A stretch of DNA of 64,000 nucleotides from an uncultured Erysipelotrichaceae bacterium (GCA_902764545.1 CACWWC010000004.1:1746-65745); one strand, 5' to 3'. Shown: positions 27,901 to 60,788, counted from the first letter of the stretch. Numbers and translations: made by a program. Notes: generated from the sequence alone by a model not told the origin.

Positions 27901-29750
27901 TCTTTCACGACCTTTCTACTTGATGAATTAGATATTAAAATACTTTTTAAACTTATATTATTTATATGAAAGTTGGTTTTATTATTTAATACTTTTTGTT
28001 CTTTAATAACGTTTTGAGCTTTTGCTTCTTCTTTAATTCTAGGGATACTTTTATAATCTAATATAACACCTTTAAATGCAGGTAATAAAATACCATTTCT
28101 ATCTATTCTAACAATACATTCTCGTGTTTGTAATTCAGTTAATAATTTAATCTTTTGTTCTTTAGAATTATCTAGAGGAATTTTCATATTAAAGTTATCA
28201 ACTAACAAATTTGCATCTAATTTTGATACTCTAAATATATAGTAGTTTATGGTATTAGCAAAGATAGAATTTTTTAATTCATCTGATATTTGATTAAAAT
28301 ATTGTCCAGCTAAAACTAAAGATAAATTATACTTTCTTGCTTCTGATAAATATCTTGCTAAAATAGGATTTTCAACAACTGGAACTTCATCAATAATAAA
28401 AATAATATGTTTATCAATCTCTTTTGATTGAATTATTGTTAGTAGTTGTTGCATTATCAGTCCCGAGATAGTTTTGGTTACTTTATTACCTAGTTTTGTT
28501 CTATCAAGTGAGAAAAGAGTTAAAAAGTTATCATTAATGGTTTTTTTTAGGTTATCATTTATTTTTTCTGAGCTAAATACAGGTAACATTTCCATTTCAT
28601 CAATAAAACCTATAATTGGTGATATTGCATCATTATAAGATTTGGTCTTTAAATCGTTAAAGTCCGATGAAAAAAAATCTATTACACTAAATGGTAATTT
28701 AGATTTTAATCTTTTGATTATTTCATTCCTATATTCCAAATCTAAAATAAGTTTTCTTAAATTTCTAAAATTAAATCCCTCATCTGTTAGCAATAAATGA
28801 ATAGAATGTCTTAAAACTCTCTCTAGTTTTGAATTATATTGATCAGCAATTAAAGATTTTAATAAATCAAGAAGCAGTTCTGTAGAGGCAACTTTGTCAC
28901 TGTTATTATTGATAAATAAATCAATACTATCTAGATTACATTTAAAGTCAATTACACGTCCTATGCCTCCTATATCATTTTCAAGATTAGCATGTGGATC
29001 AATTATTATAACTTTATATTTTTGTCTGAGAGATTTATTTTTGTAAATGTTATTTACTAATAGACTAATAAATTTTGATTTACCACAACCAGAAGATCCT
29101 ATCACAATAGAATGCTTATCAAAACTGAAATTATTTTGATTTAGATAAAATTTTCCTTGTAAATATGGGAAGGTATCAACTGATAATAGCGCATTATTTG
29201 AATCTGTATTTAATAGATGAAGTATCTTACTTATCTCAAGATATTTTGGTGATTTTTTATAAAAATATCTTTTATTACTCTCAAAATCTACTGATAAAAT
29301 AGTTGATGGTATGCCAAATAAAATTACATATTTTTTTATTAGATTATTTTTCTTTATGTAAACACTTATTTTTGATATAATCTTATTTTCATATAGTTTA
29401 AAAAAATCAATCTTCAAATATTTTAGACAACCTTTATTTCTAATCTCAGTATAATTGATTAAATCTATAACATTACTATCAATTTTAGGTAGTAATGGTA
29501 AAGTATAGTTGACTTTAGGTATCTTTATTCCTTTTATAGGTTTTAATATATAAGAGTTTAAATTATTTATAGTAGCAGGCAAACTACATTTAGTTTTAAT
29601 AAAATATCTTATTTGATTTTTTTCATTAATTATTATTATTTTCCATTTTCTTAATAAGCCATTATAATTTGATATTATATTTACTAAATCATGCCATTCT
29701 TCTTTAGATATATTTTTTTTAGTTAAGTATACTTCTGAATTATGCCACAT
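27897..29750 (-). CDS. HerA/FtsK/TraD-like P-loop ATPase with an unknown N-terminal domain
   Basis: Walker A 'VIGSSGCGKSKF', 'VIIIDPHANL', Walker B 'IIFIIDEVP' and 'ARKYNLSLVLAGQYFNQI'. Start set at the ATG after GAGGTG. Confidence 0.7.
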   Translation of the reverse strand: MWHNSEVYLTKKNISKEEWHDLVNIISNYNGLLRKWKIIIINEKNQIRYFIKTKCSLPATINNLNSYILKPIKGIKIPKVNYTLPLLPKIDSNVIDLINYTEIRNKGCLKYLKIDFFKLYENKIISKISVYIKKNNLIKKYVILFGIPSTILSVDFESNKRYFYKKSPKYLEISKILHLLNTDSNNALLSVDTFPYLQGKFYLNQNNFSFDKHSIVIGSSGCGKSKFISLLVNNIYKNKSLRQKYKVIIIDPHANLENDIGGIGRVIDFKCNLDSIDLFINNNSDKVASTELLLDLLKSLIADQYNSKLERVLRHSIHLLLTDEGFNFRNLRKLILDLEYRNEIIKRLKSKLPFSVIDFFSSDFNDLKTKSYNDAISPIIGFIDEMEMLPVFSSEKINDNLKKTINDNFLTLFSLDRTKLGNKVTKTISGLIMQQLLTIIQSKEIDKHIIFIIDEVPVVENPILARYLSEARKYNLSLVLAGQYFNQISDELKNSIFANTINYYIFRVSKLDANLLVDNFNMKIPLDNSKEQKIKLLTELQTRECIVRIDRNGILLPAFKGVILDYKSIPRIKEEAKAQNVIKEQKVLNNKTNFHINNISLKSILISNSSSRKVVKE

Positions 29751-29825
29751 AGTAATACACCTCACGATAAATTATATAAAAAAATGGAAATAAAAAACTG
29801 ACTTTTTTGCAATCACTTTTGTCAG

Positions 29826-30620
29826 TTAGTATATTGCAACTAGAAAGTCAGTTACGTTATCATGGTAGTATTCTAATTCAGGTAATTCTTTTAAATTATA
29901 ATTAATTGATGGAAGAAATTCATTATAAAATTTATGAGATAATTCTTGAATTTCTTTTGCATCTTGTGAATTAATTCTAAATTTAAGCCATTTGCTTTTT
30001 GGTATTATTATATGTTCAAATTTTTCTATCTTTTTATCAAATAAACAATAATATTTTTTGCTATTTTCTCGTTCTATATCATAGGTAATCATTCCATATT
30101 TTATCTCACCATATTTATTTGAATATTTATCTATTATATTTCTAAAGAATAATGGAGCGTCTATTCCAATTTTACTATTGTTAGTTGCTATACTAACTCC
30201 ATATAAATCCATTTTATCTAAAGTAATTATTTCATAATCTAATTCAGTTGTCATTTTAATATTTTCATTGAAAAATATTTTGGGAAAATTTTTCAGTTTA
30301 GTATGCTTATTTACTAAACTTGGTTTAATACCATGAAATCTTTCAAATGCTCTTGAAAAGGATGTTGCATTATCATATTTGTATTTAACCGCAACATCTA
30401 TTACTTTTAAGTTTCCTTTATATAAATCGTATCCGGCGTTAGATAATCGTCTTTTTCTAATGTATTCTGCTAGAGAAATATCTGTAATCATACTAAATAA
30501 TCTTTGCATTGTGTAAACATTAACACCTAATATTTTAGATAGTTTTTCATAACTAATTTCTTCTTCTAAATTGTCATCTATATATTTAGTTATCTCATTT
30601 AAATTTTTATAGATATTCAA
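29826..30620 (-). CDS. AraC-family regulator with a GyrI-like effector domain
   Basis: N-terminal HTH ('ISYEKLSKILGVNVYTMQRLFS' and 'NATSFSRAFERFHGIKPS'). The C-terminal roughly 150 aa is arranged like a GyrI/SbmC domain. Confidence 0.75.
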   Translation of the reverse strand: MNIYKNLNEITKYIDDNLEEEISYEKLSKILGVNVYTMQRLFSMITDISLAEYIRKRRLSNAGYDLYKGNLKVIDVAVKYKYDNATSFSRAFERFHGIKPSLVNKHTKLKNFPKIFFNENIKMTTELDYEIITLDKMDLYGVSIATNNSKIGIDAPLFFRNIIDKYSNKYGEIKYGMITYDIERENSKKYYCLFDKKIEKFEHIIIPKSKWLKFRINSQDAKEIQELSHKFYNEFLPSINYNLKELPELEYYHDNVTDFLVAIY

Positions 30621-30769
30621 ACTTCATCACCTATATAGTTATTATAGCATAGTTTTTCTTTTCAATATAAATATATATACCTATTTTTAAAAGATTTAAT
30701 TTTTAAGAAAATCTATTAAGATGAGTAATATTTTGATATAATATGTTGAAACGGAGATGATTTTATAAT

Positions 30770-31573
30770 ATGAATGGTTTAGTTATTAAAACTCATGATG
30801 ATTCTATACAGACATATGAGCAAGCTTGGATTGAGTTTGTTAAAAAAAATAAAGGCAGTTTATATAGAAATCCTTCTGCTTCTTTATATACATCAATGGT
30901 TTATGGTTTTGCAAATCATCTACCCTATTCAATGGATATTGAACAACCAGAATATGTCCCTTCTGACTTTTTAAACATGACTCCACTCGATGTTGATGAT
31001 AATAATTGGTTTAAATGGGAAGATAGGAGGACTTTTTTTAATTCACTAGTTAGATGGGGAGATACATTTAAAACTGGCATGTTGCTGCAAATGTGTAATG
31101 TCTTTCAGAAAATGATATTAGGCCAATTTCCGAGAGAGTTTGAATTAACTGAAGAATATTATACTGAATGGGGAATTAGTACGATGACTGGAGATAAAGA
31201 ATACAATAGATGTTTTTTTGAAACGTTAAAATTATTACCCACTTATTATAAAAAAATAGTTAGTACACTTAATAATGATGAGAGAAGAAGAATGTTGGAT
31301 GAAATGTATAATGATATAATGAATAAAATTGCTGCGCGGTTTGGTGGATTCAAAGAAACAGATGCTTGTGGAAATATCATTAGGGAACAAAAAGGGAGTG
31401 TACCTATCAGGCCAGGTAGTGATGTTCAAATGATTGTATATTGGGACAATATTACGTTTCATGATGGGATACCATCTATCATTCAAAGAATTAAAGATGA
31501 ACAACTTAAAACATATCATTCTCAAAAAGAGCAGCACCTGTCAGGAGAATGCCCTTCTTATTTAAACCAATAA
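30770..31573 (+). CDS. hypothetical protein
   Basis: 267-aa ORF divergent from the AraC gene, with GGAG upstream. No motif recognised. Confidence 0.5.
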   Translation: MNGLVIKTHDDSIQTYEQAWIEFVKKNKGSLYRNPSASLYTSMVYGFANHLPYSMDIEQPEYVPSDFLNMTPLDVDDNNWFKWEDRRTFFNSLVRWGDTFKTGMLLQMCNVFQKMILGQFPREFELTEEYYTEWGISTMTGDKEYNRCFFETLKLLPTYYKKIVSTLNNDERRRMLDEMYNDIMNKIAARFGGFKETDACGNIIREQKGSVPIRPGSDVQMIVYWDNITFHDGIPSIIQRIKDEQLKTYHSQKEQHLSGECPSYLNQ

Positions 31574-31638
31574 AATCGATTAAAGTTCAAAGACAGTAAT
31601 AACTTCTCACGGGAGGAATATCATTGGAAAAAGAATAA

Positions 31639-32337
31639 TTGTTAAAGCAAATTTATACAAATCTTGGTGTTGTAGATTGTTATATAAAAGATGGTGGATT
31701 AGGGTTTAATTTAGTGAATAAGAGTATGGACTTCAATGTTGTTATTCCAGAGCATATTTATAAAACACTTCTGGAAATAAGAGGTAAAACAGATGAAACA
31801 GGAGTTGAGTATCCCTTTGCAATGGTAGGTAATTTAGGGGATATTAATGGGGAAATTTATTTTTGTGTTTCTCTAGTAAAGACTTGCTATGATGGAAATG
31901 TTAATAATGGGCACGTTAAAACTTCTGATGATTTTAATAAGTGGTTATCAGAAAGAATAAATGATTATTCTTTTTGTATTTTATGTCATACACATCCTAA
32001 ATATGAAAAGACTACTTTTGATAAGTCTATTTTTGATACAGTCAAAAAAAATAACGGAAGCAAACTCTGTTTGCGTAATATTGGAATGAACATTAGTAAC
32101 AGTGACATTTTACAGCTTATTGGTCTTAAATTGGAACAAAGGAATATTAACAATAATATTTATTTTCTTCAAGGGATATCTTTACCAAATGGTGAATTTA
32201 ATATTTTGGATATTGAATTTGATGATAATAATCCTACCCTATGTTCAGTTCATAATGTTTATAGAATTTATGAAGATAAACTTATTCCTGTAAATAACAT
32301 TTGGAATAGCAAAGGTAAGAAAAAAGTCATTAATTAG
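31639..32337 (+). CDS. hypothetical protein with a possible JAB/MPN-like metal site
   Basis: 'GVEYPFAMVGN' and 'ILCHTHPKYEKTTFDKSIFD' give E...HxH...SxxD with non-canonical spacing. The TTG start is uncertain. Confidence 0.35.
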   Translation: MLKQIYTNLGVVDCYIKDGGLGFNLVNKSMDFNVVIPEHIYKTLLEIRGKTDETGVEYPFAMVGNLGDINGEIYFCVSLVKTCYDGNVNNGHVKTSDDFNKWLSERINDYSFCILCHTHPKYEKTTFDKSIFDTVKKNNGSKLCLRNIGMNISNSDILQLIGLKLEQRNINNNIYFLQGISLPNGEFNILDIEFDDNNPTLCSVHNVYRIYEDKLIPVNNIWNSKGKKKVIN

Positions 32338-32383
32338 TTCTATACCATTGAGTTTTTTACTTGTTTAAAGATGAATAATAAAA

Positions 32384-32407
32384 AAGAAAAGCATAATTTT
32401 CTTTTTT
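32384..32407. terminator. bidirectional rho-independent terminator
   Basis: Hairpin aagaaaa/ttttctt with loop gcataa, flanked by A- and T-runs. Confidence 0.6.
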
Positions 32408-32428
32408 ATTTTTATTAGTATTACGTTT

Positions 32429-33011
32429 CTAATTAATATAGTATTCCATTCCAAGCATATTTCTATGAGGTTCATTTGGCCTAAATTTATTGATGAAAAT
32501 ATAGTGTCCTGGTGCAGTTTTAAAACCAACTTTTTTGGATAAAGATATAGCTGCAACATTTTTGTCATAAACTATTAGCTTTAAAGAGTCATAACCATCT
32601 TGTCTCAATAATTCAATTAAATCTTCTATTATTCTTTGGGCGTACGTAATCGACATTTACTGCAAACATCTCTAAAAACTTAGATTTAGTATATTTTCAT
32701 TTGAAACTTGAACTTGAAACTTCATCATCAAATAAAGCAAAAAAACTTACAATATTATTATCCTCTTCACAAACATACAGTTTTTCTTGTTCTATAAGCC
32801 CTTTTAATTCTTCTGCTGGATAATATTCATTCCATAATTGTAACCCATTAGCGTTCATGTTTTTAACTATTTTTAAAGCAATGGTTTTAAGAGATTTTAA
32901 CTCTTCTTGTTTTGCCTTGCGAATTCTTAACTGAGGAATATCTTCTATATTAATTTTAATATTTAAATATTCTTTTTGTATCAAACTGAGTATTAGAACT
33001 TCAAATATCAC
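32429..33011 (-). pseudogene. disrupted GNAT acetyltransferase
   Basis: Two ORF fragments: an N-terminal 104 aa ending '...IVSFFALFDDE' and a C-terminal 75 aa ('AQRIIEDL...NVAAISLSKKVGF'). They are separated by 40 nt containing stops. The acetyl-CoA Q/RxxGxG/A loop is missing. Confidence 0.6.
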
Positions 33012-33057
33012 TTTAAGAAATCAAGTTTTTGAGATAATAAAGAAGAAATTAGATGAT

Positions 33058-33270
33058 TTATCTGAAAAATATGGAATAAATAGTAAAGCTTTTCCTGTTT
33101 ATCTTTTGAATCTTATCAATATCTATATTATTATTTTGAACTATTTTTAGAAAATAAATGTCATCTTTGTCTTTGACTTTTCTTAATATAGCACCAGGGT
33201 TACTATCACTAATTGTTTCAAATGTGGCTTTATCACTAAAAAATTTGATATTAAAAATTAAATTATCCAT
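33058..33270 (-). pseudogene. N-terminal remnant of an aminoglycoside-phosphotransferase/kinase-like gene
   Basis: 70-aa ORF with 'ISDSNPGAILRKVKDKDDIYFLKIV', which resembles the glycine-loop and Lys region of APH-type kinases. It stops abruptly and no kinase core follows. Confidence 0.4.
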
Positions 33271-34111
33271 TTTTCATTACCACTAAGGTTTTTTCCTTTC
33301 CATATTTTTTATAATCATTGCTACCCATTTTTTCTAAATAATTTTCAAAAGATAAATTATCTCCATTAATCAAACTAATTAAATTATTATAAAAATCCTT
33401 ATCAAATAAATAATTTGAAAATCCATCACTATAAACTATAACTATGTCACCATCATTTAATATCAATGAGCCTTCTTTTAAAAAATACTCAAATTCCGAT
33501 TCACCAGTTATTGCTCCATATGAATATTCATTATCTGGTTTATTACGATAGTTCTTTCTAACAATAACTCTAGCTTCTGGTTCATTCCAATTAAATGAAC
33601 CTGTATCAAAGTGCTTATTAACTCTTTCCATATCATCATCAGTTTTAAATATTAAATTTCCGTTCTTATCAAAAACAGCAACTCCACAATCACAAATATA
33701 ACTATAATATAAGTTATTATCTTCAATATATGCAGATGCACCAACCGCTCCGTAATAATCATTCTCCAAATAATCACATGTCTTAATGTGTATATCATTT
33801 AATTTTCTTACTTCCTTATTAGCTTTAATAAAAACATCTCTTAATGATATTTTTTTATTAATAATATTATTATAATTTGCTTCAAATATTTTACATATTA
33901 AGGTTGCTGCCAGACTGGAACCGCTTGGATTGGGATATTTAGCTATTCTTTCTTCAAAAGAAATAGAATTAAAGTTTTTTATCCCATTTGGATCTCTTGT
34001 TATACCATCAGCAACAACTGCAAAATTATTTTGACAATAGTAGCTATCTTCAATTGGAAAATTATATCCAATAGTTTTAATATTATCAAAAGTATTTTTA
34101 TACAATATCAT
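33263..34111 (-). CDS. PP2C-family Ser/Thr phosphatase
   Basis: 'AVVADGITRDP', 'GAVGASAY' and 'IVIVYSDGFSNYL' are the metal-binding Asp blocks of PP2C/SpoIIE-type phosphatases. Confidence 0.65.
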   Translation of the reverse strand: MILYKNTFDNIKTIGYNFPIEDSYYCQNNFAVVADGITRDPNGIKNFNSISFEERIAKYPNPSGSSLAATLICKIFEANYNNIINKKISLRDVFIKANKEVRKLNDIHIKTCDYLENDYYGAVGASAYIEDNNLYYSYICDCGVAVFDKNGNLIFKTDDDMERVNKHFDTGSFNWNEPEARVIVRKNYRNKPDNEYSYGAITGESEFEYFLKEGSLILNDGDIVIVYSDGFSNYLFDKDFYNNLISLINGDNLSFENYLEKMGSNDYKKYGKEKTLVVMKNG

Positions 34112-34414
34112 AGTATCACTACTTTCTATTTTGATATTTCTTTGTTGACTGTATTATATCATAATATTTAAAATTTTATAGAAACGTATAATAAATTTGT
34201 AATAAAAAGAAGTAGAAATCAGTCTCATTCATTCTGTTATATAATAAAAAAATCAGTCATTTTTCAGACTGAAGTTTATATTAAGTTCGAAAAGGTCGAA
34301 CAGATTCGTCACTGGAGCGATAACTTTACTTATATTCGAAAAAATATACTCCCAAAGTTGTTTGATTAAATCAACTAAATAAATTATAGCAGATATAGAA
34401 AATATTACAATAGA

Positions 34415-34438
34415 ATTCACCAAAAAATTCACCAAAAA
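34415..34438. repeat. perfect tandem 12-mer (attcaccaaaaa x2)
   Basis: Read directly from the sequence. It lies in a relatively G+C-enriched non-coding patch about 75 nt upstream of the 34513 gene. Confidence 0.9.
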
Positions 34439-34512
34439 ATCGGAGAAATTTCGTCACATGAATTGTGAAATATAATGATTTGGTGTACAATTTAATTGAT
34501 AATAAATGAGAG

Positions 34513-36015
34513 GTGTTAAATGTGAAAGTTTATGTAAAAAAAGAAGATAAAAATACTATGATTCCTAGAATTATTGTAACTATTGTATTTTTATCAGTTT
34601 CAGTTGGAATATTTATAGCTTTCTTTAAAAGTGGAAAATCTTTTATTGATGCATTAGCTTCGTTTGGAATTACATTATTATTTGCTATTATATTTCTTGG
34701 GTTTAGTATGTATTTTATTTATGCATTAATTAAACGTCCTAAAGGTTATAAAGCCAAACTTGTTAATAAAAAGGTTGAAACATATAACGGTAAGCAAATA
34801 ACATATATGGAGTTTAAGACAGAAAAAGAAAGAGAACAAGAAGAAGATTTTATTCCTGCTGATTATAAATGCTATACAATTGGAGAAAATAATTTAATTG
34901 TAGGAAATAACTATTCATTAAGAATTAAAGAATTTAATTGGGAGCCTAAATATGTTGAAGAAATTAATAATTCTTATGAAAATGGAATAAATAAAGTTTC
35001 AAGTAAAGTTCCTAATATGACTATGTCTCCAGTATTTTTTTCAGTAGGGTTAATTTTTGGCGGATTATTATTTCTTTGTATTTTAGGAATAATAATGTAT
35101 CCACAATATACTTCTACATATATAATGTTTGGTATTTTATGTGGTGTAGCATTATTTATGACATTTAAAGCAAGTAAAACATGGAAAGTTGATAATAATA
35201 TTGAACAAAATGAACAAAATATAAATATAGAATTAGAAAAAATAAAACCAATAAGCAATTATCAAGAAAAAGTTGGAAATATAGTAATTAAACATTTACT
35301 TATTCTTTTAGTAATATTTCCTATAGTATGGTCTATGATATTGTTACAAATGAATATACCAAAAGAATCATTTATAATTGCATTGTCAATGATTTTTTTT
35401 GTTGAATTACCAATAATTGTAATGATTTTATATAATATAGGCTATGATGATAGATTAATTAAAAAACATAAAGTTAACATTACAGAAAATATTAATATTG
35501 CTGATATAAAATATTTTAATATATTCAGACCTACAAAAAATACTACATTTCCTCAATATTTTATAGTTGATCAGAATAAAAATTTAATATTTAAGATTAA
35601 AAAGAGTAATTTTATCGGAAACAAATTTGTTATATGTAATCATCATAATATAAAAATTGGAGAAATAAAATCCAAAATATTTAGTTTAACTAATGAATTT
35701 GTTATAAATATAATAAATGAAAAACCATTCATTATTCGTTCCAAGATGCAATTACATTCAAATTATCAAGTTATAGGTCGTGATTATTATGTTAAAGGTG
35801 ATACACATTTAGTCAGAAACATTATTTATGATAACAAAGAAAACGATATTGCATATATATCTGCTATTTCAAAACATGATAACAATTGGTATGAATTAGG
35901 TAATATGGAAATTTCCTTAAATGAAAATGTAAATAATAGTGTTGATATTATGATAATGGCTTTATGCATTACAATGGGAAATTTTCAAACATTTGATAGA
36001 CGTATAGATAGATAA
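34513..36015 (+). CDS. multi-pass membrane protein with a C-terminal LURP-one/tubby-like (DUF567-like) domain
   Basis: At least 6 hydrophobic segments. The C-terminal roughly 160 aa ('FIVDQNKNLIFKIKK...FVICNHHNIKIGEIKSK...YQVIGRDYYVKGD') resembles scramblase/LOR-family repeats. Confidence 0.45.
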   Translation: MLNVKVYVKKEDKNTMIPRIIVTIVFLSVSVGIFIAFFKSGKSFIDALASFGITLLFAIIFLGFSMYFIYALIKRPKGYKAKLVNKKVETYNGKQITYMEFKTEKEREQEEDFIPADYKCYTIGENNLIVGNNYSLRIKEFNWEPKYVEEINNSYENGINKVSSKVPNMTMSPVFFSVGLIFGGLLFLCILGIIMYPQYTSTYIMFGILCGVALFMTFKASKTWKVDNNIEQNEQNINIELEKIKPISNYQEKVGNIVIKHLLILLVIFPIVWSMILLQMNIPKESFIIALSMIFFVELPIIVMILYNIGYDDRLIKKHKVNITENINIADIKYFNIFRPTKNTTFPQYFIVDQNKNLIFKIKKSNFIGNKFVICNHHNIKIGEIKSKIFSLTNEFVINIINEKPFIIRSKMQLHSNYQVIGRDYYVKGDTHLVRNIIYDNKENDIAYISAISKHDNNWYELGNMEISLNENVNNSVDIMIMALCITMGNFQTFDRRIDR

Positions 36016-36041
36016 TAAAAAAAAGACAAACTGAGTCATAT

Positions 36042-37337
36042 TTACCTAGAATTGTCTTTTTCTTTTTGGATATCTTTATCAAAATTATTAAGATCATGTT
36101 GTATGCCTTCGGCTCTTTTAGTTATTTCTTTACAATACTTATTATACTTATAAAATTCTTTAATTTTAGGTTGTATAGCATTTATTTCAGTAAGTATTTC
36201 ATTTTTCTTTTCATCAGTTTTTGCTCTATGGTATCTTTTCCATAGATTTTCTCTTTTACCTTTTAATTCACTTAATTCATTAGAGTTATTTTTAGCGAAG
36301 TTATCTAAATCTTCTTTAGTTACAATATTATTCTCATGCATAAATCTAACTTGCTGTGAAGTTTGCTCTAACTTGTAAACTTCATTTCTAATAGAGTAAG
36401 GAAGATATTGTTTTGGGTATTTCTTTGGAAATACTCCTAGCAGATAACAATAGTATAAGTATAATCCGTAGATACCTTTATGTGATTTATTAGTTTTACA
36501 GTATTCTTCAAAGATAGATTTTTGTGACATTGGTTTAAATACTATTTGTCTTGAAGAATATAATCTTTCACTTAACCTGTCTTTTGAATATTCTTCACCA
36601 AAAACATTTTCTATTCTAACTTTATCTTCACCATCTCTGTAAATAATTATAATACCATTACGAGAATATACTTTATAACCTAATGATCTCATTCTTTCAA
36701 ATAATTGTTTTAAGGTAACTGAATAACTTATAGAACTATCCAAATCTTCTTTTAGTGTTCTGTAATAATCATTATTTATAACTTTATAATTGTAGGTACT
36801 TTTATAACCAATATCTTCATCTAAAACAGATAGACCATATTCAGCACATAGTGAATCAGAAATATGTCTTAACTTTGCTAGATTAGTTCTATTGTTATTA
36901 TATTTCTTACCATCTTTATATGAAACAGAGTTGATTATGAAATGATTGTGTATGTGATTAGTATTTTGATGTGTAGCAACAACCACTTCATAATCTTTAA
37001 ACATTTCACTAACAAATTTAACTCCTATTTCGTGAGCAATATCTGGAGTAACTTCTCCTTCTTTAAATGATTGGTAACCATGATAAGCAAGAACACCATC
37101 TTTCTTATTATAATAATCTTTTGTATCAATCATGTCATCATAGGGATAATCTTCATTACAGTTTAAACAACTTATATAACAAACCTTTTCTTTTTTTAAA
37201 TTGTAATCTTGTTTACCTTCTAAATAATCATAATCATCTTTACCATAATCTTCATTAAAAGTTTTCTCGGGATTGATAATATAATTTATGGACTGGTTTA
37301 AATTATTCTTAATACTCCAAATTGATGTTGTCACCAT
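36042..37337 (-). CDS. MobA/VirD2-family relaxase (mobilisation nuclease)
   Basis: Histidine triad 'VATHQNTNHIHNHFIINSVSY', preceded by 'AYHGYQSF'. The C-terminus is predicted to be coiled-coil. Confidence 0.8.
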   Translation of the reverse strand: MVTTSIWSIKNNLNQSINYIINPEKTFNEDYGKDDYDYLEGKQDYNLKKEKVCYISCLNCNEDYPYDDMIDTKDYYNKKDGVLAYHGYQSFKEGEVTPDIAHEIGVKFVSEMFKDYEVVVATHQNTNHIHNHFIINSVSYKDGKKYNNNRTNLAKLRHISDSLCAEYGLSVLDEDIGYKSTYNYKVINNDYYRTLKEDLDSSISYSVTLKQLFERMRSLGYKVYSRNGIIIIYRDGEDKVRIENVFGEEYSKDRLSERLYSSRQIVFKPMSQKSIFEEYCKTNKSHKGIYGLYLYYCYLLGVFPKKYPKQYLPYSIRNEVYKLEQTSQQVRFMHENNIVTKEDLDNFAKNNSNELSELKGKRENLWKRYHRAKTDEKKNEILTEINAIQPKIKEFYKYNKYCKEITKRAEGIQHDLNNFDKDIQKEKDNSR

Positions 37338-37475
37338 TTGTATGGTTTAGCCTTTCTTTTGGGGTGGTGGGAGTACCAGCCCGTTGCTTGCTTATGACAA
37401 CATTAGACATAAATTAACTCCTTTAGAATAATTTCTTCAGCAGTATTCTTATAATTATTCATCAATTTTACCCAT

Positions 37476-38609
<1,134 letters not shown>

Positions 38610-38671
38610 TTAGTTATTTATACGACAAAAACAACCAATATTGTGGGAGAGTATATAAACTCACCAATTCA

Positions 38672-38944
38672 TTAATGCCTTGCTATGTACTCTGATAACT
38701 CAGACAATGGGATTTTCTTCTTTAAATTCCCTATGTAAAAATGTTTCTGTTCATTGAAGGATAGGTATAACTTATCTCCAATAATTACTTTATGTGGCTC
38801 TACATACGCTAAATTGGTATGTTCCACAATTCTTAAGTAGCCCTCAATTATTTGATAGGACTTCTTATTAAATTTGCAAGACCAATTAATTTTGGCTTTG
38901 AGTTCATCACTCATATTGATTTTCTTTTTTACGATATTAATCAT
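38672..38944 (-). CDS. hypothetical small protein next to the recombinase
   Basis: 90-aa ORF upstream of and co-oriented with the recombinase gene. No motif recognised. Confidence 0.45.
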   Translation of the reverse strand: MINIVKKKINMSDELKAKINWSCKFNKKSYQIIEGYLRIVEHTNLAYVEPHKVIIGDKLYLSFNEQKHFYIGNLKKKIPLSELSEYIARH

Positions 38945-39037
38945 ACCACATCACACCCTTTCTTTGTAATAGCAACAAAAAAATCAACTTGCGTTGATTT
39001 AATCATTAACATCGCTTGGTGCGACGATTTTATCTTT

Positions 39038-39112
39038 TGGAGCGAATGAGGGGAATTGAACCCCCATCACAGCCTTGGCAAGGCCGTATTCTAACCATTG
39101 AACCACATTCGC
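39038..39112 (-). tRNA. tRNA-Gly (anticodon GCC)
   Basis: The reverse complement gcgaatgtggttcaatggttagaatacggccttGCCaaggctgtgatgggggttcaattcccctcattcgctcca folds as a cloverleaf with an encoded CCA. Confidence 0.9.
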
Positions 39113-39117
39113 ATACA

Positions 39118-39191
39118 TGGAGGGGCCTACCGGATTTGAACCGGTGATCAGGGTGTTGCAGACCCACGCCTTACCACTTGGCTAAAGCCCC
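39118..39191 (-). tRNA. tRNA-Cys (anticodon GCA)
   Basis: The reverse complement ggggctttagccaagtggtaaggcgtgggtctGCAacaccctgatcaccggttcaaatccggtaggcccctcca has a 7-bp acceptor stem, a T-loop ggttcaaatcc and an encoded CCA. Confidence 0.9.
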
Positions 39192-39203
39192 ATTGCATTT
39201 AAT

Positions 39204-41538: not shown

Positions 41539-43128
41539 TTATTTTTCAACTCTATCAATATACTCTTCATATGGAATTTGTCTATCAACTATTTTTCCAT
41601 TATCTAATATTTCAATTACCCTATTACTTACTGTTGAATTTAATTCATAATCACGTGATGTAAACAATAATTCTCCTTTAAAATTACATAATCCTTTATT
41701 TAATGAGGTTATACTTTCAAGATCTAAATGGTTTGTTGGCTCATCCAATATTAGAAAATTTGGTTCTTCTAACATTATTTTAGAAAGCATGCATCTTGCT
41801 TTTTCTCCTCCTGATAGTACTTTTACTTTTTTGAATACATCTTCACCGGAAAATAACATCCTTCCTAAAAATCCTCTAAGTATAGTTTCATCCTTGATGT
41901 CATAAAAAGTGCCAATCCACTCCATAATATTTTTTTCTGTGTCAAAATATTCATTATTATCTTGTGGAAGATAGCCAGGATTTATGGTCTTACCCCACTC
42001 AATACTTCCTTTATCATATTTTTCTTTTCCTATTAAAATATTAAATAATGTTGTTTTTACCATATCGTCCTTGGCTAAAATACATATTTTGTCTCCCTTT
42101 AAGACGGTAAATGATATTTTATCTAAAATCTTTTTTCCATCAACAATTTTTGTAAGATTTTCTACTTTCAAAATTTCTTTTCCTGCTGGTTTTTCTATTT
42201 TGAAATCAACATATGGATATTTTCTACTACTTGGTACTATTTCGTCTAATTGTATTTTCTCCAACATTTTTTTACGGGATGTTGCTTGTTTTGATTTTGA
42301 TGCATTTGCGGAAAACCTGGCAATAAATGATTGAAGTTCTTTAATTTTTTCTTCTTTTTTCTTATTTGATTCTCTCATTTGTCTTTGTAGTAGTTCACTA
42401 GATTCATACCAGAAGTCATAATTTCCAATATATAATTTAATTTTTGAATAGTCTATATCTGCAATATGAGTACATACTTTATTTAGAAAATGTCTATCAT
42501 GCGAAACTATTATTACTGTATTATTAAAGTTTATTAAAAATTCCTCAAGCCACCTAATTGCTTCAATATCAAGTGAGTTTGTAGGCTCATCTAACAGTAA
42601 TATATCTGGGTTCCCAAATAATGCCTGTGCTAGTAATATTTTTACACGTAGTTTAACAGGTAATTCGGACATTGTCATATAGTGATATTCCTCACTTACT
42701 CCTAAGTTATTTAACAATTGTGCCGCATCTGGTTCTGCATTCCAGCCATCTAAATCCATAAACTCTGCTTCCAAATTTGCAAGTTTCATTCCATCTTCGT
42801 CTGTAAATTCTGTTTGTTGGTACATTTTATCTTTTTCTTCCATTATTTCATATAATTTTGTATTTCCCATAATTACAACATCAATTACTCTTTTATCATC
42901 ATATTGATAGTGATCTTGTTTTAAAATTGATATTCTTTCACCTTTTGAAACTGTTATTTCTCCTGTAGTTGTATCTAATTCGCCGCTCAACAGTTTTAAA
43001 AAAGTAGATTTTCCACTTCCGTTTGCCCCTATCAATCCATAACAATTTCCATTAGTAAATTTTATATTTACATCTTCAAATAGAACTCTTTTTCCAAATT
43101 TTAAACTAACATTATTTACTTGTATCAT
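41539..43128 (-). CDS. ABC-F family ATPase (two ABC cassettes, no TM domain)
   Basis: Walker A 'GANGSGKST', a second 'LSGGEKAR' signature with 'LILDEPTNHLD', and an inter-domain linker 'RQMRESNKKKEEKIKELQSFIARF'. Confidence 0.85.
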   Translation of the reverse strand: MIQVNNVSLKFGKRVLFEDVNIKFTNGNCYGLIGANGSGKSTFLKLLSGELDTTTGEITVSKGERISILKQDHYQYDDKRVIDVVIMGNTKLYEIMEEKDKMYQQTEFTDEDGMKLANLEAEFMDLDGWNAEPDAAQLLNNLGVSEEYHYMTMSELPVKLRVKILLAQALFGNPDILLLDEPTNSLDIEAIRWLEEFLINFNNTVIIVSHDRHFLNKVCTHIADIDYSKIKLYIGNYDFWYESSELLQRQMRESNKKKEEKIKELQSFIARFSANASKSKQATSRKKMLEKIQLDEIVPSSRKYPYVDFKIEKPAGKEILKVENLTKIVDGKKILDKISFTVLKGDKICILAKDDMVKTTLFNILIGKEKYDKGSIEWGKTINPGYLPQDNNEYFDTEKNIMEWIGTFYDIKDETILRGFLGRMLFSGEDVFKKVKVLSGGEKARCMLSKIMLEEPNFLILDEPTNHLDLESITSLNKGLCNFKGELLFTSRDYELNSTVSNRVIEILDNGKIVDRQIPYEEYIDRVEK

Positions 43129-43165
43129 AAAATCACCTCAAAACTTACTTTATTTTACAATAAAT

Positions 43166-43194
43166 AATAAGAAAAGACAAGCAATGCTTGTCTT
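43166..43194 (-). terminator. rho-independent terminator
   Basis: Hairpin aagacaagc/gcttgtctt with loop aat, followed by a U-rich tract on the minus strand. Confidence 0.65.
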
Positions 43195-43864
43195 ATAAAG
43201 CTTTAATCATTTCTTTAATATTTGATTTATCATCTATTATATAATCTAAGTATTCACTTGGTTTTTGTTCATTATCTTTTAAAGATAATAATTCTCTAAA
43301 TTGAGAAATATTTGATTTTGAAAAATTCATGGTTCTCAATTCTTTAGCAAATAATTCTGATAATAAAAGATAAATTTGATATTGATTAACTCTATTTAAA
43401 TCTTCTGTTGGTGCTAAAGATAATTTAGTATATTTACTAGGATCTGATAGATATAGTTTGCCATTAAATATTGTATTTTCTGGAGATACATCACTTAGTA
43501 AAATATTGTTTGCACTGATTTCTTCAACGTCTTCTTCTAGTTCTCGTATTGAACAAACAAGTTCATCTTTAGGCGTTGTGACCATTTTCTTTTTTGTGCC
43601 TTTTTTTGGTATTCTATTTAATGTATAACCTGAAAATGTATTACCACACATTAATAATCTTTTTGGCAATAGTATTCTTTTTGTATGAATTTTTGTCATT
43701 GTTTTAGCAGTGTCATGATCTATTTGAGGTTTTATTTCACCATCAAATACTTTTAATACTTCACTTCCATATCTGTATATATTCCCTGTTTTTCCTTTAG
43801 CAATTAATGGTATTTCTTTTCTAGAAGCTAAGTTAATCGCTTTATTATCTATTCTAAACTCCAT
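43193..43864 (-). CDS. atypical kinase-like protein
   Basis: 'GKTGNIYRYGSEVLKVF', 'NILLSDVSPENTIF' and 'LYLSDPS' give a G-loop/Lys, catalytic-loop-like and DFG-like arrangement. Confidence 0.4.
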   Translation of the reverse strand: MEFRIDNKAINLASRKEIPLIAKGKTGNIYRYGSEVLKVFDGEIKPQIDHDTAKTMTKIHTKRILLPKRLLMCGNTFSGYTLNRIPKKGTKKKMVTTPKDELVCSIRELEEDVEEISANNILLSDVSPENTIFNGKLYLSDPSKYTKLSLAPTEDLNRVNQYQIYLLLSELFAKELRTMNFSKSNISQFRELLSLKDNEQKPSEYLDYIIDDKSNIKEMIKAL

Positions 43865-43905
43865 AAAGACCGTCCTTTTTTCAAAATATTATAACACTTA
43901 TAATT

Positions 43906-44499
43906 TTATTTTCTATAAAAACTTGATATAAACTTGGCAAATTCATATAGAATAATATTGCTTTTATTTATTGCGAAACTTTTTCCTATGGCTTTCCCGC
44001 CTATTGTCAATGAGGCAATTACCGCAGCAATCATCAGTCCTGTAAAAAGAAGATTATAGTTAAACTTTTCTACCAATATTGCAGTTATAGTTGTTCCTGC
44101 TGCACCCGAGACTATTCCACATATATCTCCAATTACGTCACAGCAAAAACTTGATACTTTTTCAGCATTTTTTTTAAATTTTACCGCTACGGATGCGCCT
44201 TTTACTTTTCTCGAATTCATTGAGTGAAAAACTGCTTCGTCTGCTGTTGTAACCGATACACCTATTATATCAAATAATATTCCTAAAAAAATAAATAATA
44301 AAGTTATAATCACACCTAACCATAAAGACAAATTAGGTATCGTCATTTGGGAGACAAATGATAATGTAAATGATATCACAAAAGATAGAGCTACTATTGT
44401 AATAATCCATTTAATATCTACAGTCTCTTTTTTTATTTTTTCTTTCTTTTTTGTTACTTCAATTAAATTTTTTAATTCACTATTTTTCTTTGTTTGCAT
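43906..44499 (-). CDS. four-TM membrane protein, OapA-like by size, topology and position
   Basis: 197 aa with four hydrophobic segments and an internal repeat-like pair, 'FDIIGVSV' and 'CDVIGDICGIV'. It lies directly downstream of the large non-coding unit. Confidence 0.5.
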   Translation of the reverse strand: MQTKKNSELKNLIEVTKKKEKIKKETVDIKWIITIVALSFVISFTLSFVSQMTIPNLSLWLGVIITLLFIFLGILFDIIGVSVTTADEAVFHSMNSRKVKGASVAVKFKKNAEKVSSFCCDVIGDICGIVSGAAGTTITAILVEKFNYNLLFTGLMIAAVIASLTIGGKAIGKSFAINKSNIILYEFAKFISSFYRK

Positions 44500-44524
44500 A
44501 TTTAACTCCTATGTCTATTATATC

Positions 44525-44549
44525 AAAAAAAAAGTAGATATACTACTTT
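44525..44549 (-). terminator. rho-independent terminator ending the non-coding unit
   Basis: The minus strand reads aaagtag-tatat-ctacttt followed by U9. Confidence 0.65.
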
Positions 44550-45156
44550 ATTAACCTTCATAATTGTTTGGCGATCAATATAGTAAACTTTGAGCCTTAG
44601 GTCAAGTAGGATTTCCCTAATTCTTACATGTTCGTTACCAAACATGCGGTTCCCCTTTAAAAGAATTAATATGCCGTCACCGAACTATACGACTTGATTA
44701 CCACTTAGTGCCCACTGCAATCCTATAATGAAGTACACCCTAGGAGATTTCCTCTCCAATCCTTTATTATTAATCCTTTTTTGCAAAAATAATTTCAAAA
44801 TGCAATATTTAATTTGAGTGGCCGCTCAAAAAAAATAAGATCACTTATCCCAATATTTTCACTCAAGACAGGCTACACTGCACATAGCTTTCGCCACAAT
44901 ACAGGTTTTATATCCTATTTCGTAACAAATCATCAGTAGTTATTAGTTGATTTGCCACAAGAATAGGTCTCCACGAATTGTGGGTCGATATCTCGTATGC
45001 CGTTACGAGTTGCCCAGAATTCTCATCTCCAGCATCCACCCCAAACTGGGCGTAAGAAGCAGACACCAAAGGTTTCACAGATATGCCCTTTAACGAATTT
45101 TTAAGCTCGTCTTCCTAATAAAGTAATTGACTAGAATAATGTGCCATCAATTACTT
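44525..45156 (-). ncRNA. large structured non-coding RNA candidate (about 630 nt; OLE-like by length and synteny)
   Basis: No ORF of 60 aa or more on either strand. G+C is visibly higher than the flanks (for example 25/60 in 44941-45000). It has its own consensus promoter and terminator and many local hairpins. Confidence 0.55.
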
Positions 45157-45160
45157 GTTA

Positions 45161-45189
45161 ATTATATCACTTTTTTTCATATTTGTCAA
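45161..45189 (-). promoter_or_regulatory. consensus extended -10 sigma-A promoter of the ncRNA
   Basis: The minus strand reads TTGACA, a 17-nt spacer, then TATAAT, with the spacer ending in TGa to give TGaTATAAT. Confidence 0.75.
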
Positions 45190-45247
45190 TTTTATTCTTG
45201 TTGTATCCACTAGTTTAATATATGCATTCCATTTTCCATTATGCATA

Positions 45248-46336
45248 TTATTTATATAATTTTTTGTTATCTATATATACATTGTTTGAGTTCTGATATT
45301 TTTCTTTTAAAATATTAGAAAAATAAGCATATGGAATAACTCCGTTTTCATTTAGATATTTTTCATATTCTTTATATGGTTCTTCATCATAAATTAAATT
45401 TAGTATTCCTTTATTGTATTCATATCTTTTAAGAAGATCATTATTTTCGCTAAACTTTGTATAAAAATATAAATCCATGGTTGTAACTACATTATTGTAT
45501 GCTTTTACAGATATTATTTCTTTTGTTTCGAATTCATTAAAAATCAGTTCTAGGTTGTCCATAAATTCATCTACTTGACTCTTATCTAATACTGTTCGCA
45601 AACTATCTTTTATAGATTCCATATCACCTGTTGTGTAGGAATATAATACATTATCTGGCCCTACCATATCACATAAAATTTTGATTATGCTTATTTCGAT
45701 TGGATATGTATTTTTTTCAATAAATGGATTTGTAGATACATATTCGTTTGTAAGCAACTCTGTCATTCCTTCTAATATATATTTAGGTAAATTAACTGTG
45801 TTAGGATTTGTAAATAATACATGTATTAGTTCATGCAATAATATTTCTTTATTTGCTTTATCTTTACTTTGAAAAACACTTATTTTATGATCTTTTTCTG
45901 AGTAAATTGCAAGAGTAGATTCATCATAGTTACTTGGTCTTTGAACATATTCAATTCTTAATTTTTTAAATTCATCATAAACAATTTTACCATTTATATA
46001 GGGGTTTTCTGATATGATGGGTTCTAGTGAATAAATTAATTCTTTTGTTTCATCATCTAGATTCTCATTATGTATTACTGCATGAAAAACTTTATAATTT
46101 TCGTTTCTGACTTTTATGCCAAGATGTGATTCAACTTCTTTTAACATATCTCCATCTGATATATCATTAGATGATTGATAAAGTTTTTGGGTATTTTCTT
46201 TGTAGTTATCTCCCTGCATTGTAGCGCCTATAAATATGCTTGTTGAAAGAACTACTCCACTCATTATATAGCTTAAGATGTTGTTTTTATTGAATCGTAT
46301 TTTATATGATTTTAGTTTTTCTTTAACACTAGACAT
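45248..46336 (-). CDS. membrane-anchored putative zinc metalloprotease
   Basis: N-terminal TM segment and an HExxH motif in 'LLHELIHVLF'. Confidence 0.5.
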   Translation of the reverse strand: MSSVKEKLKSYKIRFNKNNILSYIMSGVVLSTSIFIGATMQGDNYKENTQKLYQSSNDISDGDMLKEVESHLGIKVRNENYKVFHAVIHNENLDDETKELIYSLEPIISENPYINGKIVYDEFKKLRIEYVQRPSNYDESTLAIYSEKDHKISVFQSKDKANKEILLHELIHVLFTNPNTVNLPKYILEGMTELLTNEYVSTNPFIEKNTYPIEISIIKILCDMVGPDNVLYSYTTGDMESIKDSLRTVLDKSQVDEFMDNLELIFNEFETKEIISVKAYNNVVTTMDLYFYTKFSENNDLLKRYEYNKGILNLIYDEEPYKEYEKYLNENGVIPYAYFSNILKEKYQNSNNVYIDNKKLYK

Positions 46337-46406
46337 TTGAACCCCTCCAAATGTTTCTAATTATACCACAAATTATAAAAAAAAGCAAAAAAAATAAGAA
46401 GATAAT

Positions 46407-47090
46407 TTAATTATTTCTTATTTTTTCAATATACCAATTAATTTTACTTACCCAAGTTCCCGATTCTGCATATCTAGGTCCGATTGTTTCTGGTGTTGTT
46501 AGGCCTTTGGAAAAATAATTATTATATAAATTATCAATAAGTCCTACTAGGCCTTCATCTATAGATGAAAACTGCTTATAAGCTCCTCCATTGCATCCAG
46601 GAGCCCCTTTTTGTCCTCCGAAATTATAACAAGTTCTAGATAAGTTTGAACAACTTGAACCACATCCTGTTTCATGGAGAAGGATAGCTGTTGCTATATA
46701 GGGATCGACGCCTTTATTAATACATTCAGAGGCAATAATCCCTCCTTTTCCCGCAACAATATCACTTCCTAAACTTCTATTTAGTTTGTCAGATAATTCT
46801 TCAAGAGTCATACTTTCGTATACTTCTACTCTAGGAGGGACAATGACTGATGCAGGTGCTGTTTCCATTTCAACCTCTTGAAATACCATTTGTGTTGGTG
46901 ATTCTTTTTTTTCAGTATTGTTTCTCACTATCATGTTTGCACTTGCTGACATGTTTTGTATTTTAAAGTTATATATATTAGCACTTTGTTTTTCATTTAC
47001 TTTGTCACTATTTTGTATTACTAAACCGATTGAAATCATCATAACTGCAACAAAGATTGTTAGTGTGCATATTATATTTTTATTTTTCAA
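46407..47090 (-). CDS. glucosaminidase-domain peptidoglycan hydrolase (probable)
   Basis: N-terminal anchor, then 'ATAILLHETGCGSS...YNFGGQKG...YKQFSSIDEGLVGLIDNLYNNY', which resembles the mannosyl-glycoprotein endo-beta-N-acetylglucosaminidase domain. Confidence 0.55.
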   Translation of the reverse strand: MKNKNIICTLTIFVAVMMISIGLVIQNSDKVNEKQSANIYNFKIQNMSASANMIVRNNTEKKESPTQMVFQEVEMETAPASVIVPPRVEVYESMTLEELSDKLNRSLGSDIVAGKGGIIASECINKGVDPYIATAILLHETGCGSSCSNLSRTCYNFGGQKGAPGCNGGAYKQFSSIDEGLVGLIDNLYNNYFSKGLTTPETIGPRYAESGTWVSKINWYIEKIRNN

Positions 47091-59572: not shown

Positions 59573-60232
59573 TTACATATAATATTGATTATTATTCATT
59601 TTTAGTTGTTGTATCAAGTATTCATCATTTTTATAATACATTTGTTCTTTTGTATTTGGTATATCATTTACACCTTTTTTGAACATTTTTTCATAATAAT
59701 CAAATAATTCTTTAAATCTAGCGTAGTGAATTATTTCTCTTTGTCTTAGCCATATTAAAGGCCCTATTACATCTGGATCATCTGTTAAGTCTATTAAATT
59801 TTCATAAACTGCTCGTGCTTTTTGCTCTGCAGCCATATCTTCTGAGATATCAGCTAGTGGATCTCCTGTTGTTGCGAAATAAGCAGTTGTAAATGGTACT
59901 CCATTGGCATCTGTTGGAAACAGACCTTTCGCATGTTCTGCATAGTGTGTATCTAACCCAGCTTCTTTGATTTCTTCTAATGTTGCATCTTTCATTAGTT
60001 GGTGAATCATTGTTTCTAACATTTCAACGTGTCCTAATTCTTCTGTTCCAATGTCATTAAGAAGCGCCCTTCCCTTATCATCTGGCATTGACATCCTTTG
60101 ATTTAAATATCTTAGCGCAGCACCTAATTCTCCATTGGCACCACCATATTGTGTTACTAGATATTTTGCCATACGTAAGTCTTTCTTTTTAATATTTACA
60201 GGATACTGTAACCTTTTGTGATAACTAAACAT
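59573..60232 (-). CDS. cotJC: manganese catalase-family spore coat protein CotJC
   Basis: 'YPVNIKKKDLRMAKYLVTQYGGANGELGAALRYLNQR' and 'EELGHVEM' are the ferritin-like di-metal motifs typical of CotJC. Confidence 0.85.
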   Translation of the reverse strand: MFSYHKRLQYPVNIKKKDLRMAKYLVTQYGGANGELGAALRYLNQRMSMPDDKGRALLNDIGTEELGHVEMLETMIHQLMKDATLEEIKEAGLDTHYAEHAKGLFPTDANGVPFTTAYFATTGDPLADISEDMAAEQKARAVYENLIDLTDDPDVIGPLIWLRQREIIHYARFKELFDYYEKMFKKGVNDIPNTKEQMYYKNDEYLIQQLKMNNNQYYM

Positions 60233-60653
60233 TTCTATCCTCCCATGGCCATTTATCTGATTCCCAGGTAAATGATTTATTCATTTCTTCACTATTTATG
60301 TTTAATGGTCCATAGTTTCGCTCATATTCCTCTATCAATCTATTAGCTTGTTTTTGGTAATCCATAAATAACATAAACATACTTCTATCCTCTGGGTGCA
60401 TATCAAGATATAAATTTAAATCATGTGCTGCAAAACAAATTGCTGATAGCTCATATAATTTTCTTTCTTGAGCATTTTTAGGTTTTAATTTTTCTGGTGA
60501 ATAATCCTTATATTGACTATATAGATTTTTAAACATATTTCCTTTTTCAAATCCTTCTTGCGGATTAAACAAGTCATTCTCATATGGATTATTAGTATAA
60601 TTATTCATATAAGCATTATTTCTAAACCAGTCATAATTTATATAGTTATTCAT
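60225..60653 (-). CDS. cotJB: spore coat protein CotJB
   Basis: 'LYELSAICFAAHDLNLYLDMHPED' and 'YERNYGPL'. It overlaps cotJC. Start set at the ATG after AGGGAG. Confidence 0.75.
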   Translation of the reverse strand: MNNYINYDWFRNNAYMNNYTNNPYENDLFNPQEGFEKGNMFKNLYSQYKDYSPEKLKPKNAQERKLYELSAICFAAHDLNLYLDMHPEDRSMFMLFMDYQKQANRLIEEYERNYGPLNINSEEMNKSFTWESDKWPWEDRNV

Positions 60654-60788
60654 AATATCTCCCTTCAAATTAATGTATTCTGGTCATTTATAACTAATAA
60701 GGACATGCGCCCATTTTTTTATAAAAAAATAAAATAATACTTGTCAAATGTATCTTTTGTTGATAAAATAATCTTGTGTTTTTGAAAT

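Follow-up and report, generated by a model that had tools for sequence, protein, structure and literature searches.

Positions 43,906 to 45,189 of a 64,000-nt stretch of DNA from an uncultured Erysipelotrichaceae bacterium (GCA_902764545.1, CACWWC010000004.1:1746-65745; the whole stretch is called the window below) carry, on the minus strand, a consensus promoter, a region of some 600 nt that lacks a long open reading frame (ORF), a terminator-like hairpin, and a gene for a protein with four hydrophobic segments. In a first-pass annotation, this arrangement was described as a structured transcription unit upstream of a four-helix membrane protein, and was compared with the genes for OLE (ornate, large, extremophilic) RNA and its partner OapA. 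The region is almost certainly an ole gene for an OLE RNA of the full-length type, followed by oapA, which encodes the obligatory membrane-protein partner. This identification is the correct, routine annotation of a described RNA class and not a discovery; the class, its partnership with OapA, and its presence in RF39-type gut bacteria have already been published.

The whole window was scanned against all 4227 Rfam families. The OLE model (RF01071) matches at 45163..44552 (-) with 400.9 bits, where the gathering score is 50, and the E value of 2.7e-114 excludes chance. The match spans model positions 1-616 of 616, is not truncated, and has a G+C content of 0.37 as reported by Infernal. At the highly conserved (upper-case) positions of the RF01071 consensus, 218 of 249 nucleotides (87.6%) are identical in the window RNA. 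The near-invariant nucleotides that mark OLE RNAs, about 25% of positions, are present, and long invariant blocks run through the clade of 75 sequences described below. Might the region instead encode a different large structured RNA that resembles OLE, such as ROOL, GOLLD, raiA, or an undescribed class? Large size and ornate structure are common to all of these, but OLE is the sole non-tRNA match in the whole window, and no other family, including the ROOL, GOLLD, and raiA models that the first-pass annotation had named for comparison, matches at the site. The full-length match with its high identity at conserved positions, together with the oapA synteny that is specific to OLE (PMC11332333), refutes this alternative, to which we give a negligible probability. 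The features of the locus are collected in Table 1.

Table 1. Features of the ole-oapA locus, with window coordinates and the corresponding RF01071 model positions
Feature	Coordinates	Strand	Model positions	Basis and remarks
Sigma-70-type promoter of ole	45161..45189	-		12/12 consensus; -35 TTGACA 45189..45184, 17-nt spacer, TG extension 45169..45168, -10 TATAAT 45166..45161
Putative primary transcript, ~630 nt	44525..45154	-		Starts ~7 nt past the -10 box and stops where the U-run ends
OLE RNA	44552..45163	-	1-616	Covariance-model match to RF01071
5' hairpin	45123..45154	-		GUAAUUGA / UCAAUUAC, read from sequence; loop with conserved UAUUCUAG, CUAG palindrome region near P2
P3, 5' strand	45116..45122	-		Long-range helix closing domain 1; pairs with 44763..44769
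P4	45092..45111	-	54-73	Hairpin with A-rich loop CUUAAAAAUU; RF01071 alignment and alignment helix 5
P4a equivalent	45076..45085	-	82-89	CAUAUCUGUG; consensus palindrome CAUCGAUG degenerate
P5	45026..45072	-	93-139	Long hairpin, invariant GCCCA loop; RF01071 alignment and alignment helix 6
P6	44975..45022	-	144-191	Three-part hairpin, tip CUCGUA/UACGAG; helices 7-8, 10/14 pairs changed on both sides
J6/7	44968..44974	-		GUGGAGA, G-A-rich kink-turn strand; invariant in clade
P7	44914..44967	-	199-250	Hairpin, 18 pairs, 19-nt loop; helix 9, 15/17 pairs changed on both sides
P8	44878..44904	-	259-289	Hairpin, GAAA tetraloop; helix 10, 99.8% of cells pair
P9 arm (P9 to P9.3)	44774..44869	-	289-384	RF01071 alignment and alignment helices 11-13
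L9.3	44823..44820	-		Self-complementary GGCC in the P9 apical loop; putative kissing-loop dimer bridge B3
P3, 3' strand	44763..44769	-		Alignment helix 4
P10	44744..44754	-	404-414	Hairpin GAG-GAAAU-CUC, then conserved CUAG; helix 14, 100% of cells pair
P11			424-435	Small hairpin of the model, absent
P12 to P14	44573..44733	-	436-595	3' multi-helix domain; RF01071 alignment and alignment helices 15-20
P13	44690..44669	-		GGUGAC loop at 44681..44676
Intrinsic-terminator-like hairpin and U9	44525..44549	-		7 bp, 5-nt loop; AAAGUAG-UAUAU-CUACUUU (44549..44531), nine U (44533..44525)
Candidate extended -10 of oapA	44517..44525	-		TGATATAAT, read from sequence; overlaps the last terminator U
oapA	43906..44499	-		197 aa, 21.6 kDa, four hydrophobic segments, DxxxD (D121-V-I-G-D125)
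Kinase-like 223-aa ORF	43193..43864	-		Begins 41 nt past oapA
ABC-F-type ATPase	41539..43128	-		Two ABC domains and ABC_tran_Xtn
Glucosaminidase-like protein	46407..47090	-		Upstream of ole in 64/80 loci

The gene downstream of ole is found where the first-pass annotation placed it, on the same strand and 25 nt past the U-run, which ends at 44525; the ATG lies at 44499 and is preceded by a ribosome-binding site, AGGAG, at 44510..44506. The hydrophobic segments of the protein lie at about residues 31-53, 58-82, 117-143, and 148-168, and the helices of an AlphaFold2 (AF2) model fall at the same places. Both aspartates of the DxxxD motif, which distinguishes OapA from CNNM domains (PMC11332333), are invariant in 12 aligned homologues. 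The Pfam CNNM/DUF21 match is below threshold (E 0.0055, 16.8 bits against a cut-off of 28.4), and a weak CNNM match of this kind has been described for OapA (PMC11332333). In a Foldseek search, ranks 1-6 are all CNNM, CorB, or CorC structures (MtCorB 7M1T and 7M1U; CorC 7CFG and 7CFF), with probabilities of 0.97-1.00 and template modelling (TM) scores of about 0.45-0.50, while the matches from rank 7 onward are unrelated and of low probability. One of these structures, 7M1U, is the published best match for OapA of Halalkalibacterium halodurans (H. halodurans; PMC11332333). The AF2 model was built from the shallow 12-sequence alignment and has a mean predicted local distance difference test (pLDDT) score of 62; it was used only for the fold search, and the agreement of the top six matches on the CNNM family is all that is taken from it. 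A profile of the OapA alignment run against PDB sequences gave only a spurious match to enoyl-CoA hydratase (E 0.78) and was set aside; sequence alone does not reach the CNNM structures. OapA and its neighbours have no match in NCBIfam.

In its mass of about 21 kDa, four hydrophobic helices, DxxxD motif, and CNNM-like fold, the protein resembles OapA as well as the CNNM domain found in the MpfA/CorB/CorC Mg2+ transporters, and its closest predicted folds are those of MtCorB (7M1T, 7M1U) and CorC (7CFG). As is expected of OapA and unlike MpfA, the protein lacks CBS and CorC/HlyC domains. Judged from the published features of OapA, the downstream protein bears its hallmarks, with a predicted CNNM/CorB-like fold.

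How widely is this arrangement conserved? Homologues of OapA number in the thousands, and the few that are named are listed as 'hypothetical protein' from metagenome-assembled genomes (MAGs) of Bacilli or Mollicutes. When one genome per GTDB species was scanned with the alignment of 12 homologues, 80 loci were obtained (numbered with the prefix L), all from gut or rumen MAGs. Searching with the window RNA by nhmmer revealed an OLE homologue of about 570-630 nt on the same strand and upstream of the oapA homologue at 78 of the 80 loci, and ten of these relatives, when scanned against Rfam, scored 336-406 bits. The two others, L016 and L064, were considered as cases of OapA without OLE and rejected. 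In each of them an extra ORF lies between the contig end and oapA; with an ORF intervening as it does in L053, ole probably lies past the contig end. The gap between ole and oapA has been enlarged by extra DNA in L053 (3629-5992), L011, L020, L024, L037, L057, and L070; in L053 it measures 2.4 kb and contains a 787-aa ORF.

The window RNA and 74 complete copies were aligned (75 sequences), and the Rfam structure, extended by three candidate helices (the 5' hairpin, P1, and P3), was projected onto the alignment. Of the cells in paired columns, 89.4% form standard pairs, against 38-44% when the partners are slid by 1-3 columns, a comparison to be read with the caveat that the projected structure derives from the alignment of the model to the window sequence. 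The two sides change together in 110 of 174 pairs (46-59 when slid), the covariation score is 0.304 (0.06-0.08 when slid), and none of 500 shuffles reached any of the observed measures. The predicted ornate secondary structure of OLE is supported by covariation, and the comparison of homologous loci proposed in the first-pass annotation has yielded strong covariation in the OLE helices.

Does the region have any of the marks of a decayed protein-coding gene, or of non-coding DNA whose stems are fortuitous? Beyond the lack of annotation in the window, nothing points to either. Both possibilities are refuted by the significance of the covariance-model match and by the 110 pairs with double compensatory changes. 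In addition, the RNA is conserved more than the flanking protein genes; neighbouring ORFs at the same loci are only 25-46% identical. The longest ORFs between 44525 and 45156 on either strand have 56, 48, 41, and 40 aa, as expected from the earlier statement that none reaches 60. The probability that remains for decay or chance is minute, and the two outcomes by which the first-pass annotation would have given up its proposal, the absence of any covariance-model match together with that of a stable transcript, or signs of a decayed gene, are not what was found: the match is highly significant, and nothing suggests decay. The reported enrichment in G+C is also borne out as a contrast (0.36-0.37 over 44600..45199 against 0.21-0.28 in the flanks), although the value itself falls slightly under the 40% or so that had been given.

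The stems named in the first-pass annotation all correspond to real OLE helices once the sequence is aligned to RF01071: aagtaattga/tcaattactt is the 5' hairpin, ctcgta/tacgag the tip of P6, tttgag/ctcaaa P9.3, ggaga..tctcc P10, and acatgtt/aacatgt the tip of P14. The P numbers used here were deduced from the text of published descriptions and not from figures; the mapping is internally consistent and is our own. Its anchors in those texts are P3 as the helix closing domain 1 (J3/4, J9/3), the A-A bridge of L4, the P4a palindrome contacting OapA, the kink turn of J6/7, the GGCC kissing loop of L9.3, and P12.2/P13 as the site of OapB. In the 5' hairpin (alignment helices 1-2), 88-93% of cells pair and four pairs change on both sides. 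The long-range helix P3 is not in the Rfam structure; it was proposed from the sequence and the literature (J3/4, J9/3) and joins positions 42-48 of the window RNA with 395-401. Its support comes from pairing in 93% of cells and from 7 of 9 pairs that have changed on both sides.

Several loops have roles assigned by earlier structural and biochemical work. Bridge B1 of the OLE dimer is formed by loop L4 in the cryo-electron microscopy (cryo-EM) structure (PMC12286853), and we would place L4 in the hairpin at 45092..45111. The roles of J6/7 as a kink-turn strand and of L9.3 GGCC as the kissing-loop dimer bridge B3 are taken from the same work (PMC12286853). The L9.3 GGCC is kept in 72 of the 75 sequences, has been deleted in L042, and is replaced by CGCG in L032 and L037. 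The two variant loops lie at L032:5337-5949 and L037:4562-5175 (alignment columns ~387-392); like GGCC, CGCG is palindromic, and as a further variant it agrees with the kissing loop between RNA molecules that was observed by cryo-EM. The elements used for dimerisation, an A-rich L4 (CUUAAAAAUU) and a self-complementary L9.3 GGCC, are present in the window RNA at the sequence level.

Contacts with proteins have been mapped in H. halodurans to the P4a palindrome (OapA) and to the P13 GGUGAC loop (OapB; PMC12265935). The P4a equivalent of the window RNA mismatches the consensus at model positions 82, 86, and 87, and AUCGAUG is kept in only 7 of the 75 members of the clade. The P13 loop is kept in the window and has been lost in eight loci (L036, L050, L052, L055, L059, L070, L071, and L073), which retain the rest of the 3' domain (alignment columns ~537-550). 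The tip of P7 (alignment columns ~225-275, window 44914..44967) is variable: a motif, CCUAUACG ... CUGAUGG, is common to most members of the clade and lies outside the Rfam consensus, only its CUGAUGA side is left in the window, and a few loci have insertions of 15-25 nt there. In about ten loci of the clade, P7 is truncated.

How is the RNA made? The perfect minus-strand promoter noticed in the first-pass annotation matches the consensus at all 12 positions, carries the TG extension, and is the only perfect match within 43000..46500. Of the 75 sequences, 70 have an equivalent -35/-10 pair whose spacing from the first conserved nucleotides of OLE is constant. At the other end, the hairpin with its U-run, also described earlier, is a real feature; when a stem of 5 bp or more that adjoins six or more U is required, it is kept in 64 of 73 relatives, where it lies 28-42 nt past the 3' strand of P1, or 75 nt past it at a single locus. 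The stems differ between relatives in a compensating manner (AAAGUAG/CUACUUU, AUAGUAU/AUACUAU, GACAAAG/CUUUGUC, AGCAAAA/UUUUGCU). A terminator scan that requires three G-C pairs did not detect the A/U-rich hairpin at 44549..44531, because it has only two. With a promoter of its own at one end and a conserved hairpin and U-run at the other, ole most likely gives rise to a separate RNA of about 630 nt. Given the weakness of the hairpin, read-through into oapA is possible. In 35 of the 75 sequences, TGnTAnAAT occurs in the ole-oapA spacer after the terminator; with the candidate -10 box of the window, TGATATAAT, the oapA leader would be only about 11 nt long. It appears that oapA would be expressed by read-through, from its own promoter, or by both.

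The same signals bear on the idea that the region serves the oapA mRNA as a cis-acting leader, such as a riboswitch or attenuator working through the hairpin and U-run, and is not a free-standing RNA. Several features would suit a leader: the region directly precedes oapA on the same strand, with 25 nt to the start codon, its end is terminator-like, and read-through past a weak terminator is plausible. Against this stand the match to the OLE model and the experimental demonstration that the OLE class acts as a stable ribonucleoprotein partner of OapA. Several relatives have ole and oapA hundreds of bases apart, up to the 2.4 kb of L053 with its 787-aa ORF, and the extended -10 box past the terminator in 35 of 75 spacers would serve oapA itself. 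Moreover, 600 nt of conserved structure is far beyond the need of known leaders. We regard a leader as very improbable, though less remote than the other alternatives, and keep to the reading of a free-standing OLE RNA.

Which type of OLE RNA is this? Three types have been distinguished by Fernando and Breaker (2024): full-length RNAs, variant 1 RNAs, and variant 2 RNAs (PMC11332333). Variant 1 RNAs have a short P7-P9, often lack the OapB site at P13, and are common in TANB77, whereas P7 and P8 are absent from variant 2, which is common in RF39 (PMC11332333). As in both variants, the hosts in the present clade are uncultured gut bacteria known only from MAGs, and one relative, L058, belongs to RF39. 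In contrast to the variants, the window RNA has both hairpins, P7 with 18 pairs and P8 with a GAAA loop, as well as the whole P9 arm and GGUGAC in the loop of P13. The elements by which the full-length type is recognised (P7, P8, full P9, and, at the P13 tip, the OapB site) are all found, with covariation in alignment helices 9-13 and 18; P7 and P8, whose complete absence marks variant 2, are both present and covarying. The predicted fold of the window RNA is of full-length architecture despite its RF39-allied relatives. The published full-length cut-off of at least 390 bits belongs to a different model and is not comparable with the RF01071 score of 400.9 bits.

Like the OLE RNAs studied in H. 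halodurans and Clostridium acetobutylicum (C. acetobutylicum), the window RNA is about 610 nt long and has all the major Rfam helices but P11. The conserved loops are shared as well (A-rich L4, L5 GCCCA, J6/7 GUGGAGA, L9.3 GGCC, and P13 GGUGAC), P7 and P8 are present, and ole directly precedes oapA, on the same strand, in a host from the anaerobic Bacillota. Unlike these RNAs, it lacks P11, as does the whole clade, its P4a palindrome CAUCGAUG has become CAUAUCUGUG, and its helices are very A/U-rich. The ole gene of H. halodurans lies inside a long polycistronic operon (PMC12265935), whereas that of the window has its own consensus promoter and conserved terminator. The isoprenoid, DNA-repair, and translation genes that neighbour classic ole loci are absent, and a clade-specific set is found instead.

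The host appears to be an uncultured gut member of the class Bacilli, low in G+C and allied to the order RF39, an assignment that draws on relatives and not on a marker gene. The alliance is drawn because L058 (Mycoplasma sp. CAG:877) is of the GTDB genus CAG-877, order RF39, and CAG-877 is its single basis. OLE RNAs belong to Bacillota, typically anaerobes or extremophiles, and the gut or rumen origin of all 80 related loci agrees with this; the titles of these loci mostly name Bacilli, Firmicutes/Bacillota, Tenericutes, Mollicutes, or Erysipelotrichaceae, and a few have other or no lineage names.

What speaks against the identification as ole and oapA? Nothing contradicts it, and the points that weigh against it are limits. 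Taken by itself, the hairpin of the terminator is weak, with -5.4 kcal/mol, z = -0.93, and only two G-C pairs. The only model element missing from the window RNA, the small hairpin that is P11 in our numbering, is missing from the whole clade, and the window has a degenerate form of the palindrome with which OapA makes contact in H. halodurans. The structural model of OapA is of low confidence (pLDDT 62), and its Foldseek E values are modest (3e-3 at best). What is said here of the ends and abundance of the transcript, of dimerisation, of membrane localisation, and of function is inference.

The gene order around ole is specific to the clade: a glucosaminidase-like gene, a variable ORF in some cases, ole, oapA, a kinase-like ORF, and an ABC-F ATPase. 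With its glucosaminidase-like and ABC-F genes, this neighbourhood is unlike that described for Bacillus and Clostridium. The 223-aa ORF after oapA has kinase-like motifs (GKTGNIY..VLKVF; SDVSPEN) and is weakly similar (BLASTP E 3e-5) to an ORF at 4472..5302 (-), itself a weak match to Pfam Pkinase; the 223-aa ORF has no match in Pfam, NCBIfam, or the PDB sequences. A homologue of 25-46% identity lies downstream of oapA in 50 of the 80 loci, mostly directly after it, and the ABC-F ATPase follows oapA, with 68-93% identity, in about 60. Neither OapC (L7Ae family) nor MpfA (CNNM-CBS-CorC) was found by Pfam among the 67 ORFs of the window, a search that covers these 64 kb and not the genome.

Other parts of the window hold features of their own. 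A probable integrated mobilisable element at ~27900..39200 adjoins a tRNA pair (39041..39112 and 39121..39191, -) that is syntenic with relatives L002, L030, and L061. Its genes include those for a serine recombinase (37476..38585), a MobA/VirD2-type relaxase (36042..37337), and a HerA/TrwB-like ATPase (27897..29765). A complete bacterial set for non-homologous end joining, consisting of Ku, an ATP-dependent ligase, and a LigD polymerase/phosphoesterase, lies at 15223..18195 (-). At 59573..60668 (-), cotJB adjoins a manganese-catalase/cotJC-type gene; these are spore-coat genes, and relatives are labelled Mollicutes or Tenericutes. They fit the published correlation of OLE with sporulation genes.

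By analogy with H. halodurans and C. acetobutylicum, the window RNA would fold as two domains, one of them 5'-central (P3-P9) and the other made up of P1, P2, and P10-P14, and two RNAs would dimerise through the A-rich L4 and the P9.3 GGCC kissing loop, both of which are conserved here. OapA, a four-helix relative of the membrane domain of CNNM/CorB Mg2+ transporters, would anchor the RNA at the membrane, with OapA dimers holding it at, and possibly across, the bilayer (PMC12265935, PMC12286853). The particle would aid the cell under such stresses as an excess of Mg2+, cold, short-chain alcohols, and poor carbon sources, and may modulate the transport of divalent cations. We know of no organism in which the biochemical activity of OLE RNA has been established.

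More tentatively, the OLE particle of this RF39-allied gut clade might be a pared-down and differently wired version, a reading that we hold to be possible but doubtful. It is suggested because ole is autonomous, with a strong promoter and terminator of its own, oapA often has its own extended -10 box, P11 is gone, and the P4a palindrome is degenerate; the last of these would mean that OapA docks differently in the clade. To our knowledge, OapB and OapC are reported to be missing from RF39, and the P13 GGUGAC loop is retained although this is so. The conserved neighbours of ole, the fast-evolving kinase-like protein and the ABC-F ATPase, may be clade-specific partners.

OLE is among the largest conserved bacterial RNAs whose biochemical function is unsolved, and each well-delimited copy adds comparative data. 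By itself the window copy adds little; its value is comparative, and lies in 75 aligned sequences with clear promoter and terminator boundaries. These add covariation support for the long-range helix P3, the CGCG variant of the L9.3 kissing loop, and evidence that this lineage can do without the P4a palindrome and P11.

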